A stretch of 64,000 nucleotides of DNA from Escherichia phage vB_EcoM_Schickermooser, in the sequence record NC_048196.1; one strand, 5' to 3'. The notes beneath the pieces are model-generated. The model saw only the letters and a program-made list of their open reading frames with translations, was not told the DNA's origin and searched no databases. The translations under genes and the position numbers were made by a program. This document shows, in pieces, positions 3,141-64,000 of the stretch (position 1 is the stretch's first letter; every line of letters starts with the position of its first letter).

Positions 3141-5165
3141 ATGAATTTAACAAGACCTAATAGTGCGATAGCCGATCTGGTAGAAGCTACTTATCGAAAA
3201 CGTCGCAGCTTTGAGGCAGGTTTTACATTACGTAATTCCCGTGAAGTTTTGCTGTTAGCAGCAGAAGGGAATTATTACCAATGGAAAGGAACTTTTCCTA
3301 AAGTGGTTCCAGCAAACTCTACGCCAGCCACCACAGGTGGTATTTCTTCCCTTGCATGGCAAAGTGTTGGGACCGCTGATGATATAGCAATTATCAATGC
3401 CAAGTTTACGGCAATGCAGCAACAAATTGATGATCTGTCGGAAACAATACCTGAAGCTGGTAAATCGGCTTATCAGATCGCACTTGATAATGGTTTTGTT
3501 GGAACAGAAGCACAGTGGCTTGCCTCTTTGAAAGGGGATACTGGTGCTCAACTTAATATTAAAGGATCATTAGCAAGTACTAGTGAACTACCATCCACAG
3601 GTAACGTTGCAGGGGATGGTTATATCGTAGGTGATGTAATCTACGCTTGGGATGGTTCTGTTTGGAAACTTATTTCTTCTCTTGGGCCAGAAGGTAAATC
3701 AGCTTACGAGGTATGGTTGGCAGATGGTAATACAGGATCTGTTTATGATTTCCTTACCTCTATAAAAGGTGATAAAGGCGATGTTGGTCCTACAGGGCCA
3801 CAGGGAGCACCTGGTGTTAACGCCAACGGTTTTGATTATCGTGGAGATTTGCCTTCTACAAGTAACTTACCACAACCTAACTCTGAAAACGTAAGCCAAG
3901 CTTATTCTATCAATGGAAATCTTTATGTCTCTAATGGGACAGCTTGGGTCAACATGGGTAATATTGTTGGTCCTCAAGGTCCACAAGGTGAGGCAGGTAA
4001 AGACGGTCTAGATGGAACAGATGGAGATGAAGGGAAATCTGCATATCAAAGTTGGCTGGATGCTGGTAATGAAGGGACAGAAGTAGATTTTATTGCCTCG
4101 CTTAAAGGTCCAAAAGGAGACAAGGGTGATCAAGGAGAGCAAGGTCCACAAGGTGAATTAGGTCCACAAGGACCAGTAGGTGCAACAGGATCAGGCTTAG
4201 AGATTATCGGGGTTCTGAACAGCGAAGCTGAACTTCCTCCGACTGGAGAAGTAGGTGACGCATATAAAATTAATAATGATTTATATGTTTGGGTCCAAGA
4301 TGCTACGGAATGGATGAATGTTGGCAGTCTTGGAGGAACATCAATTACAGCTAAAGGTCATGTTCCGAACAGTGAAGCTCTCCCTGTTTACAATAACTAT
4401 GGTGATGCTTACTTAACTGAAGACACTAGTAATCTTTACATCTATACCTACGATCAAGACACCAATTCCGCATCTTTTGTTGACATGGGAAGTATTAAAG
4501 GCGACAAAGGTGAAAAAGGGGATAAAGGAGATAAGGGTGATCCTGGAACAAACGGAACCAACGGTACTGATGGGACCAACGGTAAGGATGGCGCACAGTG
4601 GTTTGTAGCAACAACTAATCCAGTCACAGGAGACGGTGTTATCAATGATTACGCCTTCAATACTACCACTGGAGCAGTATTTAAGAAAACAGATTCTTCT
4701 ACGTGGACACTTATAGGAACTCTTCCTAGTATACCAGAAGCCCCTCAAGACGGCTTGACGTATGGTCGTTCTGATGGAAACTGGATCGAACTATCAGGAT
4801 CAGATCCTACGGAAGCTATAACACCAACTAGAGTTACAGCAGGTTTCATGGAACTTGAAACAACTACTGCCAACTCTGGAGCATCTTGGACTCCTTCTGG
4901 AACTTCCAATATGTATGTTGTTACAGTAACTGACGCTCTGACAGTTGGAGCATGGCCTGGTGTCACTGGCTCTACAAAACCTAAAGCGTTTTCAGCAATG
5001 ATTTATTTGATTCAAGATACAACGGGACACACGGTTACACTAGATGCGTCTTATGGAGCACTAAATGATACAGAAATAGCAACTACTGCTAACGCAGTAA
5101 CAATTTTGCAATTAACGTATCCTGGTGTGGGTGATATCGTGGACATGGTTGTTGTAACACGATAA
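3141..5165 (+). CDS. collagen-like repeat tail fibre protein (674 aa)
   Basis: Four G-X-Y tracts (e.g. GDKGDVGPTGPQGAPG, GPQGPQGEAGKDGLDGTDGDEG, GPKGDKGDQGEQGPQGELGPQGPVGATG, GDKGEKGDKGDKGDPGTNGTNGTDGTNGKDG), each preceded by a repeated GKSAY(Q/E)xWL module; RBS GGAGAG upstream. Confidence 0.8.
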   Translation: MNLTRPNSAIADLVEATYRKRRSFEAGFTLRNSREVLLLAAEGNYYQWKGTFPKVVPANSTPATTGGISSLAWQSVGTADDIAIINAKFTAMQQQIDDLSETIPEAGKSAYQIALDNGFVGTEAQWLASLKGDTGAQLNIKGSLASTSELPSTGNVAGDGYIVGDVIYAWDGSVWKLISSLGPEGKSAYEVWLADGNTGSVYDFLTSIKGDKGDVGPTGPQGAPGVNANGFDYRGDLPSTSNLPQPNSENVSQAYSINGNLYVSNGTAWVNMGNIVGPQGPQGEAGKDGLDGTDGDEGKSAYQSWLDAGNEGTEVDFIASLKGPKGDKGDQGEQGPQGELGPQGPVGATGSGLEIIGVLNSEAELPPTGEVGDAYKINNDLYVWVQDATEWMNVGSLGGTSITAKGHVPNSEALPVYNNYGDAYLTEDTSNLYIYTYDQDTNSASFVDMGSIKGDKGEKGDKGDKGDPGTNGTNGTDGTNGKDGAQWFVATTNPVTGDGVINDYAFNTTTGAVFKKTDSSTWTLIGTLPSIPEAPQDGLTYGRSDGNWIELSGSDPTEAITPTRVTAGFMELETTTANSGASWTPSGTSNMYVVTVTDALTVGAWPGVTGSTKPKAFSAMIYLIQDTTGHTVTLDASYGALNDTEIATTANAVTILQLTYPGVGDIVDMVVVTR

Positions 5166-48932: not shown

Positions 48933-49471
48933 GAATAACTGATGAATATGTATTCTTCTTTTCACATAAAGATGTGTTTAGTAATTGGTATATTGCACCC
49001 TTTACAGAAACTGAACCAGGTTACAATGAGACTTTCTGTTGTGTTGAGCAATATATGATGTGGCGTAAGGCTTTGCTGTTCAAGGATCATGCGATTGCAG
49101 CAGCTATCCTTGATCACTCAACTATACGTGACAACGAGAGGAAACAAGCATACTACAAACGTATGGGTCGAGCGGTATCTGGTTTTAATAATAATATGTG
49201 GGAAGAGAACCGTGAGCGTATTGTTATGCGGGGCTTATGCTTGAAATATGTACAGAATCCAGATTTGTATGCAGACTTACACCTTTACCAATACAAAACG
49301 TTTGTTGAAGCAAGTCCTTACGATAAGGTTTACGGTATTGGAATGGGAATGTATGAACCAGGGGTGCTAAACCCTGCTACCTGGAAAGGGCAGAATCTTT
49401 TAGGCAAATATCATAATAAACTGATCGAAATACTTTTCCCAGACAAAATACCGCAAAGACGATATTTGTGA
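48929..49471 (+). CDS. NADAR (YbiA-like) domain protein (180 aa)
   Basis: Hallmark blocks FFFSHKDVFSNWY..PF, FCCVEQYMMWRKALLF and EASPYDKVYGIG as in YbiA/NADAR N-glycosidases. Confidence 0.75.
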   Translation: MRITDEYVFFFSHKDVFSNWYIAPFTETEPGYNETFCCVEQYMMWRKALLFKDHAIAAAILDHSTIRDNERKQAYYKRMGRAVSGFNNNMWEENRERIVMRGLCLKYVQNPDLYADLHLYQYKTFVEASPYDKVYGIGMGMYEPGVLNPATWKGQNLLGKYHNKLIEILFPDKIPQRRYL

Positions 49472-49526
49472 TATTTTAACTTTTTTCATTTTTAGAACAA
49501 AGGTGTCACTTTGTAGCACAGAAATA

Positions 49527-49562
49527 AGGCTCCTACAGCACCGTAGAGAGCCTGTTATTTTG
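49527..49562 (+). terminator. rho-independent terminator after NADAR gene
   Basis: GGCTCCTAC-AGCACC-GTAGAGAGCC stem followed by TGTTATTTTG. Confidence 0.55.
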
Positions 49563-49715
49563 TCCTATACAAACCCTTGTCTTTTTCAGTTTGCATCACT
49601 AGGATTCGATCTGAGTGGGTTCCTGAAGGTTTACCAATAAGATTAAAGGTTATATCAAATTCCCACTATCTTTTATCTCAAAAATCCCTCAAATTATTTA
49701 AACTTTTTAAGAATT

Positions 49716-49900
49716 TACAAAAGTGAAAGTTGAAAACCAAAATTTAAAGTTTAGGAAAATTATCTTAAAATGTTAGATACAAAACAAAACTCAAAAGTCA
49801 AGGAAAATTTTAAAAATTTTGCGCGCCCACAGTATTTAAAGTTTTTTTGCTTTTACAAAAATGAAAGTACAAAAGCAAAATTTAAAGTTTACAAAAATTT
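49716..49900. repeat. degenerate A-rich tandem repeats (~68-bp period, about 3 copies)
   Basis: TACAAAAGTGAAAGTTGAAAACCAAAATTTAAAGTTTAGGAAAATT recurs as TACAAAAATGAAAGTACAAAAGCAAAATTTAAAGTTTACAAAAATT, with a partial copy between. Confidence 0.6.
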
Positions 49901-49941
49901 TTATGCAGGTGAAAATGAGAAGAGTTCTCATATGGAAATGC

Positions 49942-50021
49942 AAATGATAATGATTCGCATTTAAGTTTATAAATGAGAATGATTGTCATTTACCTTATTA
50001 AATAAGAATCAATCTCATTTA
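49942..50021. repeat. three 22-bp iteron-like direct repeats at 29-bp spacing
   Basis: AAATGATAATGATTCGCATTTA (49942), AAATGAGAATGATTGTCATTTA (49971), AAATAAGAATCAATCTCATTTA (50000); each is an internal imperfect palindrome; first copy loosely resembles a Fur box. Confidence 0.65.
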
Positions 50022-50280
50022 GAGAATGACGCGCAGGGGCGGTGTTTGTCTCGCGCTCCCGTGTCCCCTCGCCATGTAATAAGAATAACAGATCCAGCCA
50101 GGAAAGCAAGCGATTATTTTATCTTTACATTTCTTTACAAATATATAGCGCCCAGCCTACCGGCGATCAACCTTCCAACCAGTGCCCCCTGGTATGTTAG
50201 CCCCGCCTTTACGCCGTGGGGGTGGCGCTTCCTCTTCTGTATGTAAAACAGTATAAGCCCGATCCCTGGGCTTGTCAAGA

Positions 50281-50544
50281 TTATTTTTTGTTTTCTTGCC
50301 AGGATAGGACACCTAACCAAAAATACATATCGCCCCGCGCCCCTGGTGGTATCTTGCTTTCCCCGCCGCCACTGCAAGCCCATAGATAACCATTTGCGAA
50401 CGTATCAAAATGATCTATTTCTTCCACCCTATGATCGCCCAGGTTGAGAACTGTTTCAACCTTTAAGCCCGTTGCGCTTGCTACCTGGTGCACCGTGCCG
50501 CCTTGCCAGCCCAATGAGTGCATAAGGTGTAATGTAGTTGTCAT
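50281..50544 (-). CDS. possible ORF (87 aa) in GC-rich intergenic segment
   Basis: Only candidate ORF in an otherwise non-coding GC-rich stretch; no convincing RBS; may not be a gene. Confidence 0.2.
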   Translation of the reverse strand: MTTTLHLMHSLGWQGGTVHQVASATGLKVETVLNLGDHRVEEIDHFDTFANGYLWACSGGGESKIPPGARGDMYFWLGVLSWQENKK

Positions 50545-50652
50545 GGTATCGCCCTTTCTTTGTTGTGCGCCCTGGTTGGCGCGGTAGAAAGATAATAGCC
50601 CTTTTCTTTATATATAGCAAGCAAAAAGAAAATAAAAAAGATTGAAAAATGG

Positions 50653-50711
50653 TTGACGTTAACCAGACGGCGGCGTAGTATTCATCTTGTAGGGCGGCAA
50701 TGGTGCCGCTC
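50653..50711 (+). promoter_or_regulatory. promoter-hairpin cassette (TTGACG-17-TAGTAT, hairpin GGGCGGCAATGGTGCCGC)
   Basis: First copy of the repeated unit; hairpin starts 8 nt after the -10 hexamer. Confidence 0.6.
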
Positions 50712-50730
50712 ACTATTTGGAGTTAAGATC

Positions 50731-50928
50731 ATGGCAACATTGCACATTGTGGCGAAAGCTGGACAAATCAACGTAGTGGTAAACGGTTTTACTGAGTTCA
50801 GTCACCCCCAGGATGATCATGAAACGGTTTTATCTTTCATTGATTCCCTGTTAGAAATGGGAGTCATTACAGAAGACCAGCACGCTACAAAATGCAAGCG
50901 CGTTAATCAAATTGCAGGAATAGAATAA
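50731..50928 (+). CDS. hypothetical small protein (65 aa)
   Basis: GGAG RBS; ORF-track N-terminal extension LVGRQWCRS is translation of the hairpin. Confidence 0.5.
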   Translation: MATLHIVAKAGQINVVVNGFTEFSHPQDDHETVLSFIDSLLEMGVITEDQHATKCKRVNQIAGIE

Positions 50929-50934
50929 AAACTA

Positions 50935-50993
50935 TTGACAACAAACAACAACCTGATAAGATGTATCACATAGGGCGGGAAGTGGTTTCCCGC
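50935..50993 (+). promoter_or_regulatory. promoter-hairpin cassette (TTGACA-16-TAAGAT, hairpin GGGCGGGAAGTGGTTTCCCGC)
   Basis: Consensus hexamers at canonical spacing; GC-rich stem-loop 8 nt downstream of -10. Confidence 0.65.
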
Positions 50994-51018
50994 TCGTAAC
51001 AGAAGAGAGATTATCATC

Positions 51019-51291
51019 ATGGCATCATATAGCGCAACAATGATCGTAGCTGGCACAACTGGTAAACCTATGAGCGGTGGCGGATCTTTCGCTAATATCA
51101 ATATTGACGGGCGTTTATCCCTGGACGCAGCGATCGCTATTGCACGGGAAACATTTAAGAAAGAATGTAATTTCAACAAGCAAGATTATCTCGGTTTCGC
51201 TATTGAAAAAACCGCGCGCTTTGTTGATTATAAAAGCCCGAAAATGGTTGATACTACACTAAAAGCGCAAGATGTAGCGTTTTTGCTTTAA
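51019..51291 (+). CDS. hypothetical small protein (90 aa)
   Basis: AGAGAG RBS; follows cassette. Confidence 0.55.
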   Translation: MASYSATMIVAGTTGKPMSGGGSFANINIDGRLSLDAAIAIARETFKKECNFNKQDYLGFAIEKTARFVDYKSPKMVDTTLKAQDVAFLL

Positions 51292-51294
51292 GGC

Positions 51295-51350
51295 TTGACA
51301 TTAACGAATAATTTGTTAATATGTTACATAAAGCGGGAATAGTTCCCGCT
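51295..51350 (+). promoter_or_regulatory. promoter-hairpin cassette (TTGACA-16-TAATAT, hairpin AGCGGGAATAGTTCCCGCT)
   Basis: Variant hairpin without the TAGGG lead. Confidence 0.6.
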
Positions 51351-51367
51351 ATTTGTAAGGTGGTAGA

Positions 51368-51625
51368 ATGTTTTACATCAAATTAAAAGGTCACGTGATC
51401 GCGTTCAAAGATAACGCTTTTTACAGATTAGCAAAATATGCGTTAATACATCCCCACTATGTTTATATAAGGGGGCGTGATGAAATAAATATCTTTGATC
51501 AAACAACATGCGAGAACATCGAGATCCGCAAGGTTGGCGTACGTGATTATCGTACATCTTTCTACCCTTGCAAGGATTCAGCAAGTCTTTTTAAAGTATG
51601 CCAATTGTTGAAAAAAGGTGGTTAA
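51368..51625 (+). CDS. hypothetical small protein (85 aa)
   Basis: AAGGTGG RBS. Confidence 0.55.
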   Translation: MFYIKLKGHVIAFKDNAFYRLAKYALIHPHYVYIRGRDEINIFDQTTCENIEIRKVGVRDYRTSFYPCKDSASLFKVCQLLKKGG

Positions 51626-62786: not shown

Positions 62787-63367
62787 CCCGAACAATGTTG
62801 ATAGATTCCACCTATGAAAAACCGACACAGAACAAAATTGCATAATTTGCGCTATCGAGCTAATCAACCATTAAACGAATAACCATACACCCCAGGGCAA
62901 CAGGCTGTTAGAGAGCTATTTAGAGCGGTTAAAATCGATCAACAACCAACAACAAACCATCAAAAACACGCTTTTCCTTCCTTTCCAGTGCAATGATAAC
63001 CATTATCATCTACCCTTGCGTATCTATGCAATATAAGTGCATAACTATAATGTTGATAATAGTTCGCAACAACTAACCAACCAACAACCTAAAACAATAA
63101 GCAAACTAATCATAATCAAAGGAATAATAGAAAGATGATTGATAACGATAAACAATCAAACCATGATGAATACTAAGCAAGATAACGATAACACGACAAA
63201 ACAACCAACTAACTAACGATAACAAACGAAACCATTAAAATAATAATTATTAGCAAAATAGTGCCTGAATGAAATCATTACAAAACGAATCATTCCCAGA
63301 GTCATCATTAGCACGCTATGCCGGACACATAGCGAGCTAATAATAAGCCAACTACACCCCAACAATC

Positions 63368-63422
63368 ATAACCATCGGTGATGGTTATTTCTTGTTACTG
63401 CGTAGCTTGCAATAATTGCAAG
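63368..63422. repeat. palindromes in non-coding terminal region (ATAACCATCGGTGATGGTTAT; CTTGCAATAATTGCAAG)
   Basis: 21-bp perfect palindrome at 63368-63388 and 17-bp near-palindrome at 63406-63422. Confidence 0.5.
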
Positions 63423-64000
63423 CGTAATGACGCTTACACTTATTGCGCTGGCTTATTATTAGCATTATATGTAATTACCAAGATCATAACATTAGCGCAA
63501 TAACAATAATCATTGTAATAATTATGTAAGGAAATAATTAGCATGGCAATAATTATGGGGGCAATGGGAGGATGATTATCATCATTCCGATACATTGCAC
63601 ACTATGCACATAATAGAATAAAAGTCAATAATTTTGGGGGCGAAATGTTACCGCCACAGGCGGGAATGTTGAGCAAGTTCTCTTAAACGTAAATAAAATC
63701 AGAAAATTCTTGATTTATTTTAGTTTATATGTTAATAAACGTTTAAATAATAATCATTCTCATATAAATAATAGTCCGTCTGTCATGAGCGGGATTAGTT
63801 GACATTGTTCCGTCATATGATGAAGTTGCCAAACCATTGATAAATAAGTGTTTGTGTGATTTATAATCAAGTGGCCCACCTTGTCGCTACGTTGGCATGA
63901 GCCTTGCATAAGTCATTGAATACGAATGATAATTATTCTCATTCGCATGATATTTGGGAATTGTCGCTGCGTGGACCTGACGGCCCGAAAATTCGCGTTA

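Follow-up and report, generated by a model that had tools for sequence, protein, structure and literature searches.

Short non-coding RNAs with a host-type promoter and a hairpin-rich body are made from regulatory intergenic sites in lambda (oop), P22 (sar) and phiTE (pseudo-ToxI). Pseudo-ToxI acts as a decoy RNA, and the escape locus of phiTE lies at 106,714-106,772 (PMC3475682). An element of the same general plan, its transcript being predicted, is described here from a 64,000-nucleotide (nt) stretch of Escherichia phage vB_EcoM_Schickermooser (NC_048196.1), the whole of which is called the window and supplies all coordinates. It is a non-coding module at 50023-50280, the left part of a GC-rich segment (50023-50650) whose right part carries a gene for a protein of 87 amino acids (aa). 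The module has no sequence or Rfam relationship to oop, sar or pseudo-ToxI, no overlapping sense gene and no tandem repeats. Identity with pseudo-ToxI was considered and rejected: in phiTE the module lies at about 39.6 kb and pseudo-ToxI at 106.7 kb, and the 36-nt ToxI-like tandem repeat is absent. By analogy, the module RNA may act as a decoy like pseudo-ToxI, and the module would work like a promoter-equipped small phage RNA outside the described families.

Parts of the locus also resemble two other kinds of system. The preQ1-I riboswitch, viral frameshift knots and the T4 gene 32 leader have an H-type pseudoknot layout that CGCC-A-CCCC-A-CGGCG-AAAAGGC-GGGG in one block of the module (core B) could also adopt, with a pair of 4-bp G-C stems, a first loop of 1 nt, a third loop rich in A and a Shine-Dalgarno-like sequence downstream. 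Core B differs from them in that no open reading frame (ORF) follows, stem 1 never covaries, an alternative long-range partner exists and no riboswitch family matches. T4 ori(uvsY), the T7 primary origin, lambda ori and ColE1 RNA II are transcription-activated or RNA-primed origins. In their general architecture they resemble the locus in having host-type promoters aimed at palindromic iterons and AT-rich repeats, lambda ori also in its four 19-bp dyad-symmetric repeats; the phage origins among them are without a conserved structured block, however, and the palindromes beside the module also occur at a second locus.

On balance, we favour reading the GC-rich segment as an early leftward unit that would be transcribed by host RNA polymerase and consists of a gene and a structured non-coding RNA (ncRNA) module. 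The segment is composite: next to one real gene it holds a non-coding module that is new, deeply conserved and probably transcribed. The parts of the module are as follows.

50023-50280: the non-coding module (G+C 51.6%)
50143-50250, minus strand: core B, a conserved structured RNA module of ~95 nt, located by covariance-model matches (G+C 61.5%)
50177-50197, minus strand: hairpin Pc, supported by covariation
50218-50222 with 50201-50204, minus strand: helix Pa, CCCC/GGGG
50213-50216, minus strand: GGCG segment, with possible partners CGCC at 50224-50227 (upstream) or CGCCG at 50161-50165 (downstream)
50165-50176, minus strand: invariant Shine-Dalgarno-like GGAAGGUUGAUC
50250-50278, minus strand: predicted sigma-70 promoter P1, TTGACA-17-TATACT, 11/12, predicted start ~50242-50244
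50122-50139: two direct TCTTTACA repeats 10 bp apart (minus sense, UGUAAAGA twice), just upstream of P2
50082-50110, minus strand: predicted sigma-70-type promoter P2, TTGCTT-17-TATTCT with TGn before the -10, predicted start ~50075
50026-50075, minus strand: region A, a GC-rich irregular hairpin with outer stem AUGGCG/CGUCAU, then UUCUCU (G+C 66.7%)

Conservation and range of the module

The window is 99.9% identical over 49400-51000 to phage nieznany (MN850598; Phapecoctavirus, Stephanstirmvirinae) in reverse complement, and its own copy of each element is the nieznany copy in all comparisons between phages. Sensitive blastn of 50000-50660 retrieved 233 phage records; distant genera aligned only over 50000-50247, at 70-83% identity, and in their records the aligned module is nearly always without annotation. 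A second search, seeded with PVP-SE1, again gave 233 records with essentially one site per record. When a 6-kb query was compared with the 4-kb syntenic loci of PVP-SE1, GAP31, 4MG, KB57, CR8, POP18, phiTE and pEp_SNUABM_01, the sole substantial alignment was at 49.94-50.25 kb, and of the 6 kb only the module DNA can be aligned with Seunavirus, Mydovirus, Certrevirus and Henunavirus. Pattern scans added uncultivated relatives from IMG/VR (a viral contig collection) and from metagenomes. In every case the module stands after a rightward operon and before the early cassette array. The proposal of an initial annotation of the window, that the segment marks the boundary at which this array was acquired, is right as to place, all relatives having the module at the left edge of their early-gene array; what is found there is a conserved architecture and not an acquisition scar.

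No match to the module was found in 5,426 E. coli genomes, a negative answer to the host-genome search that had been suggested. Scanned with a pattern, 185,579 bacterial and archaeal species genomes gave 18 matches: 17 arose by chance, and one lies on a 4-kb phage contig inside a metagenome-assembled genome. From the search counts, the missing host matches and the locus comparisons, the module is phage-specific, single-copy and syntenic. The 4-kb contig, filed as 'MAG: Proteobacteria bacterium OH_PFB_59' (JAEZZU010000352.1), carries a near-exact nieznany-type core B and P1, with one difference from nieznany over ~110 nt (a 1-nt change in the length of a C run); it is most likely phage DNA mis-binned into a bacterial metagenome-assembled genome.

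Protein coding in 50023-50280 was considered and rejected. Hairpin-loop lengths change by 1, 2, 4, 6 and 8 nt between relatives; because loop indels are not multiples of three, reading frames are disrupted and coding is excluded, and no ORF is conserved. The label "non-coding", applied earlier to the whole segment, holds only for this part. Plus- and minus-strand ORFs in 50023-50280, including phAPEC8_00257, had no PHROG or Pfam match at E ≤ 0.1, with one marginal PHROG at E = 0.19. The phAPEC8_00257 call (3645-3986 in its locus) puts a plus-strand ORF across the module and the strand opposite the real 87-aa gene, and is probably a spurious annotation.

The covariance scan of the region named no known family. 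Rfam 15 at gathering thresholds gave no match in the window. At E up to 10, six weak matches were obtained in 49450-50750, none overlapping region A or core B; a CsrC match that reaches 50051 scored 11 bits against a gathering score of 61. Four distant versions of the module gave no Rfam match at E up to 1, and a search for tRNA and tmRNA found none. Literature searches returned no description of the module, no transcriptomics of these phages and no Fur sites in lytic phages, and the module appears to be undescribed so far. In many genera no other local DNA is as well conserved, yet most GenBank records leave the module without annotation and Rfam has no entry for it.

Predicted structure and transcription

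A core B covariance model built from 30 sequences gave a single match per locus in 61 loci (68-127 bits). Among 51 distinct sequences, 90.8% of helix cells were paired (84.8 ± 0.5% in shuffles, 0/500 as high) and the covariation score was 0.167 (0.069 in shuffles, 0/500 as high), in an alignment fitted to the model and with a shuffle control that ignores phylogeny. Sliding the partners by 1-3 columns left only 15-46% of cells paired. Changes on both sides were seen at six pairs, four of them in Pc; covariation thus supports Pc, partly supports Pa, and is not found in the further helices Pb and Pb'. At pair 56:78 in Pc, 36 distinct sequences have A-U, 15 have G-C and none has a mismatch; both states occur inside Mydovirus and inside Stephanstirmvirinae. 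At pair 33:48, C-G is found in 38 and A-U in nine. The top of Pc is rebuilt by lineage, as CCAGG/CCUGG, CCGGGC/GCCAGG, GCCC-GAAG-GGGC, CCG-GGGA-CGG or GC-GAAA-GC. In the pEp clade Pa is CCAA:UUGG, and one locus has CCAG:CUGG; intermediates occur.

Pa as stem 2 and CGCC:GGCG as stem 1, with the A-rich third loop, would make an H-type pseudoknot possible in core B. Stem 1 is invariant, while stem 2 shows a C-G to A-U change in nine sequences and CCAG:CUGG in one. As the CGGCG helix has no compensatory change, the pseudoknot and the nested model are inseparable; RNAalifold, run unaided, returned Pb and Pc in the nested version with the AAGGU block partly paired. The single-stranded blocks AAGGU, AUCGC and GGCU are invariant. 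In AAGGU-N-GAUC, bulging out the one variable base would allow 8 nt to pair, as judged by inspection, with the 3' end of 16S ribosomal RNA (rRNA), a complementarity that is suggestive only.

Several other pairings and likenesses were tried and rejected. The 3' side of a long-range CCACC:GGUGG pairing varies uncompensated, and a GGCGGGGCUA:UAGCUCGCC pairing, drawn by eye, is missing in nieznany and the pEp clade. The likeness of GCGGGGCUAAC to a CRISPR type I-E repeat, GCGGGGAUAAAC, was judged coincidental, the clade with CCAA:UUGG losing the resemblance. A CsrA sponge or an Hfq (ARN)n site was also considered, but the GGA motifs do not keep their positions.

P1 was the best promoter match of the region in a promoter scan. 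Of 43 distinct upstream sequences, 42 have a match of 9-12/12 whose distance to the conserved block is constant, and shuffled sequences mostly score 8 or less; block conservation begins with ACAG at the predicted start (~50242-50244). The spacer of P1 is itself a hairpin (50255-50273; terminator-like AAGCCCAGGGATCGGGCTT, then ATACTGTTTT) and is likely the terminator of the upstream 87-aa ORF, embedded in the promoter; in relatives its place is taken by other GC-rich hairpins, whose minus-sense loops are in many cases GAAA, GCAA or GUAA. The site homologous to P2 stands 11-14 nt before region A. It scores at least 9/12 in 26 of 38 distinct sequences, made up of TTGCAA, TTGATC or TTGACC, 16-17 nt, and TATATT or TATTAT, with an extended -10 in 15, and in most genera the -35 is TTGCAA or TTGATC; the copy in the window and nieznany is weak (7/12). 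At both P1 and P2 the hexamers are conserved, the spacer sequences are not, and the position is fixed relative to the predicted start of the conserved block, as in sigma-70 promoters.

No conserved plus-strand promoter was found, the sole candidate -10, beside the last palindrome to the left of the module, varying at -11 (A, T or G). Read in the minus sense, G·U cells outnumber A·C cells by 7:3 in core B and by 29:6 in the region A stem, and GNRA loops are seen in the minus sense only. Core B folds equally well on both strands (mean -25.1 vs -24.2 kcal/mol). The minus strand is favoured because of the two conserved promoters, the G·U-rich region A stem, the GNRA loops and the lack of a conserved plus-strand promoter.

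Between core B and P2, the two TCTTTACA repeats are conserved in nearly all genera and could be a promoter-upstream element, a protein site or a part of the RNA. Region A has the conserved blocks AUGGCG, GAGACAAnCACC and CUGCnnGUCAUUC and an apical block, GAGACAAACACC. Pairing in the outer 6-bp stem reaches 90.7% of cells, as against 26-59% when slid, and if the stem forms, it forms in the minus-sense RNA (29 G·U vs 6 A·C). A terminator scan listed no intrinsic terminator at region A, the tail there being UUCUCU or UUCUGC with no U run. Region A could serve as the body of the transcript from P2, as a 3' hairpin on the one from P1, or in both roles. Core B is retained without region A or the palindromes in some lineages (L033/L094, L079 and L088).

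In the mechanism we propose, a leftward unit divergent from the early-gene cassette array would be read by host sigma-70 RNA polymerase. Its first part would be the gene for the 87-aa helical protein, ending at the GC hairpin; its second would begin at P1, built round that hairpin, which would start an RNA near 50243. The first ~95 nt of this RNA, core B, would present a hairpin of variable sequence and conserved shape, a short CCCC:GGGG helix able to form an H-type pseudoknot with the CGCC:GGCG stem, and unpaired invariant purine-rich strands, chiefly AAGGU(N)GAUC with its putative complementarity to 16S rRNA. The P1 transcript would probably extend past the UGUAAAGA repeats and take in the region A hairpin, and P2 could yield region A alone. 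The RNA would most likely be a trans-acting decoy or regulator that binds a host RNA or protein partner conserved across Enterobacterales; such a partner is proposed because the sequence is near-invariant although the neighbouring proteins have diverged beyond recognition at the DNA level.

A number of observations weigh against this reading. For every piece and on both strands, minimum free energies equal those of dinucleotide shuffles (z from -0.6 to +0.1; core B +0.10, region A -0.11). The structured ncRNA proposed by the initial annotation is supported for the left 258 bp by the conserved minus-strand promoters, covarying hairpin, G·U excess and GNRA loops, but with ordinary fold stability. 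The fitted alignment and the phylogeny-blind control, given above, belong here too. Pa is broken in two sequences. The two models for GGCG, with an upstream or a downstream partner, have similar scores, and covariation is seen in neither stem. The wobble evidence for strand is weak in core B, where the G·U excess is small. The region A stem does no better than column shuffles (160/500), RNAalifold finds no pairs and no consensus fold in region A, and the terminator scan found no canonical terminator that would end the predicted RNA. The strong conservation of primary sequence is equally compatible with a protein-binding site at the DNA level, and the trans role and the 16S rRNA idea come from inspection of the sequence only.

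If the early RNA is real, it would be one of few deeply conserved ncRNAs of virulent coliphages and would give a handle on host takeover or replication initiation. The rV5- and phAPEC8-related phages (Vequintavirinae, Stephanstirmvirinae) are widely used in therapy cocktails and are represented in the BASEL E. coli collection; to our knowledge, next to nothing is known of their early biology. A bolder proposal, possible though doubtful, is that core B would be a new phage RNA family, made within minutes of infection, that binds a host component invariant in Enterobacterales and aids host takeover, with Fur-type operators tying the early programme or an origin to host iron status. Candidates for the component would be the 16S rRNA 3' end of the 30S subunit, through AGGU(N)GAUC, and RNA polymerase, for which the HK022 put RNA, a cis-acting antitermination RNA, is the model.

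Alternative readings

The main rival, so ranked because the module abuts palindromes and an iteron array, is that the module is a control part of a replication origin, P1 and P2 firing toward the palindromes and iterons (49480-49930) and activating the origin or priming it through an R-loop. Both promoters do aim at the region of 28.5% GC, and every genus has three direct repeats there (often with CTCGATCG and AAAAATTTTT tracts) and adjacent 19-bp palindromes. The minus-sense RNA is G-rich (GC skew -0.17), and a G-rich structured RNA would aid hybrid formation; no coding target lies downstream on the minus strand. Activation or priming alone, however, needs no ~95 nt of near-invariant sequence with a covarying hairpin, and some lineages keep core B without region A or palindromes. 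The same palindromes occur at a second non-coding region (62994-63941), and no initiator gene is adjacent. We regard an origin function as rather unlikely; if it were true, the module would locate the origin for the whole phage group.

A second possibility is an element that acts as DNA, either a cluster of sites for a conserved protein or a single-strand initiation or packaging signal with a DNA hairpin. It would account for the long invariant blocks outside any helix and for the ordinary fold energies, and the A-U to G-C swaps are strand-neutral and would also keep a DNA hairpin. Against it stand the promoter-type conservation directly upstream of both blocks, the start of conservation at the predicted transcription start, the G·U excess and the GNRA loops on one strand only, and we consider it improbable.

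A small RNA from the opposite strand is very improbable. Such an RNA would start at a promoter under the Fur-like boxes, run through region A and core B to CGCCGTGGGGGTGGCG and a T-rich site, and mask RBSs (ribosome-binding sites) with CCUCUUCU and CCACCUUCC as does RyhB, a small RNA of E. coli under iron control. The palindromes just upstream do resemble Fur boxes, a terminator-like plus-strand site is present at 50212-50227, and the plus sense is pyrimidine-rich and anti-Shine-Dalgarno-like. Against this, the one -10 that might serve (nAGAAT, nTGAAT or nGGAAT) is not constant at its essential second base, the G·U pairs turn into A·C mismatches, the GNRA loops would read UUUC or UCCC, and the terminator stem has 4-6 pairs (six with two G·T in the scan, four in most relatives).

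The last reading takes up the suggestion of the initial annotation that the segment derives from horizontally acquired DNA: it would be a GC-rich insert in decay, or a scar of cassette acquisition. This has only the contrast in composition with the flanks in its favour and is hardly credible, being rejected by conservation: the element is syntenic, single-copy and conserved across two subfamilies, it is the best-conserved local DNA in many genera, the E. coli and other bacterial genomes scanned have no genuine match to it, and half of the segment is a gene under purifying selection.

The 87-aa gene and the flanking regions

The compositional contrast itself is as first described. The G+C content of 50023-50650 is 47.8% and the mean of the window 39.6% (standard deviation 2.7%, in 628-bp stretches; z = 3.08); only 0.2% of sliding 628-bp stretches equal it, and the maximum of the 64 kb falls here, making the segment atypically GC-rich for the window. 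The G/C runs quoted in the initial annotation are present in the segment. The flanks likewise agree with it: a repeat region of 28.5% GC lies on the left and promoter-hairpin-small-gene cassettes on the right. The right part of the segment contains the following.

50281-50544, minus strand: protein-coding gene, 87 aa, 'LGWQGGTVHQVA' family, PHROG 19316, recognised by homology, codon pattern and model (G+C 48.5%)
50552-50556, minus strand: RBS of the 87-aa gene, AAGGG, 7 nt before the ATG
50620-50592, minus strand: predicted promoter of the 87-aa gene, TTGCTA-17-TATTAT, from the promoter scan; the region upstream of the ORF has G+C 36.8%

The 87-aa ORF is a real gene under purifying selection and encodes a small helical protein. 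The earlier opinion that the segment holds no convincing gene and only ORFs without an RBS fails here: the ORF belongs to a conserved family and has AAGGG, a promoter that points away from that of the first early cassette (at 50653), and a hairpin and T-rich tail after the stop codon. The PHROG 19316 profile matched at E = 1.8e-57 (protein residues 2-87, profile positions 3-88 of 88). Among 5.8 billion proteins searched, homologues formed 25 clusters with identity down to 39%; several of these clusters are on contigs of ~140-150 kb, the genome size of these phages. The family alignment has 15 invariant columns, mostly in an N-terminal LGWQGGTVHQVAxATGLxV and a C-terminal FWxGV block, and substitutions at the three codon positions show a third-position excess (14/6/35 against A73, 17/13/35 against locus L032). 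AlphaFold2, given the family alignment, produced a five-helix model (predicted local distance difference test, pLDDT, 94.8; predicted template-modelling score, pTM, 0.87). Foldseek of this model gave nothing significant in the PDB (best E = 3) and was significant in the viral library BFVD only to its own family (HTH_XRE at E >= 0.7); Pfam gave nothing above 0.095 for the protein. A Cro/XRE-type helix-turn-helix identity found no support, with no significant sequence or fold match.

The gap that holds the gene is annotated unevenly. The nieznany record, in which the gene was missed, has no annotation between a NADAR-domain gene (Pfam NADAR; ends 49471) and the first early cassette gene (~50732); tuntematon has a minus-strand ORF, phAPEC8 a plus-strand ORF over the non-coding part, and most records nothing. 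The 87-aa gene itself is annotated as tuntematon_49, as A73_39 and as the C-terminal part of phiTE_079. The latter (2162-2593 in its locus) is called from a far-upstream GTG, while homology to the family starts at an internal Met, and its start is probably an annotation error. The gene is a replaceable cassette: Seunavirus and Mydovirus have an unrelated ~60-aa ORF in this slot (PVP-SE1 gp201 family), and Erwinia phage pEp_SNUABM_01 has none. To the right, the early cassettes from 50,650-51,400 onward follow a fixed plan of a near-consensus extended -10 promoter (TTGACA-16-TAAGAT or TAATAT), a short GC hairpin (for example GGGCGGGAAGTGGTTTCCCGCTC), an RBS and a small ORF.

To the left of the module lie palindromes and direct repeats.

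49913-50018: four 19-bp palindromes (AAATGAnAATGATTnnCAT) at an exact spacing of 29 bp (29, 29, 29)
Repeat arrays in relatives, in locus coordinates: L004 1741-1949; L007 1594-1796; L009 1698-1878; L008 1732-1947; L006 1582-1753

The palindromes match the 7-1-7 form (TGATAATnATTATCA) of the Fur boxes of Enterobacterales (GATAATGATAATCATTATC) with one or two mismatches, and the aerobactin Fur operator shares AATGAGAATCATT with the palindrome consensus. These boxes fall outside the GC-rich segment, and the resemblance is one of sequence. The 7-1-7 pattern TGATAATNATTATCA with <= 2 mismatches occurs eight times in the window against 0.68 expected, and no shuffle reaches eight. The 29-bp spacing is found in nieznany, CR8 and KB57; genera carry 1-4 palindromes of 19 bp, which are conserved in other genera, with a perfect TGATAATCATTATCA in phage 4MG. 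One clade of uncultivated phages (L028, L040, L046, L059) has unrelated palindromes, of GTGATAGT and GTGACTAT type, at the same position. This swap hints that the binder is phage-encoded and is not Fur.

Left of the palindromes (49,480-49,930), direct repeats are present in every genus examined, as three units of ~63-78 bp with AAAAATTTTT tracts. Three-repeat arrays were located in PVP-SE1, KB57, CR8, phiTE and pEp_SNUABM_01; the repeats of Vequintavirinae have a GATC-bearing CTCGATCG core, and nieznany has families of 72 nt and 34 nt in the region of 28.5% GC. Direct-repeat arrays beside an AT-rich stretch have an iteron-type architecture, and this array may be that of a replication origin.

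Another long AT-rich stretch without genes, with A/C-rich runs, follows the last early cassette gene at 62,800-64,000. Fur-box-like palindromes recur there at 62994, 63054, 63748 and 63927, and the early array of ~12 kb is therefore bracketed by two operator-bearing non-coding regions. The second region is conserved mainly within Stephanstirmvirinae, with one 84-bp match in Av-05. Many GenBank records start or stop inside it, and it may mark the conventional or physical genome end. Among the records compared, B15, A150 and PsgM04F (93-96% identical to these coliphages over the region) and ABPH49 (~79%) are labelled as Campylobacter, Pseudomonas or Acinetobacter phages, host labels that look doubtful.

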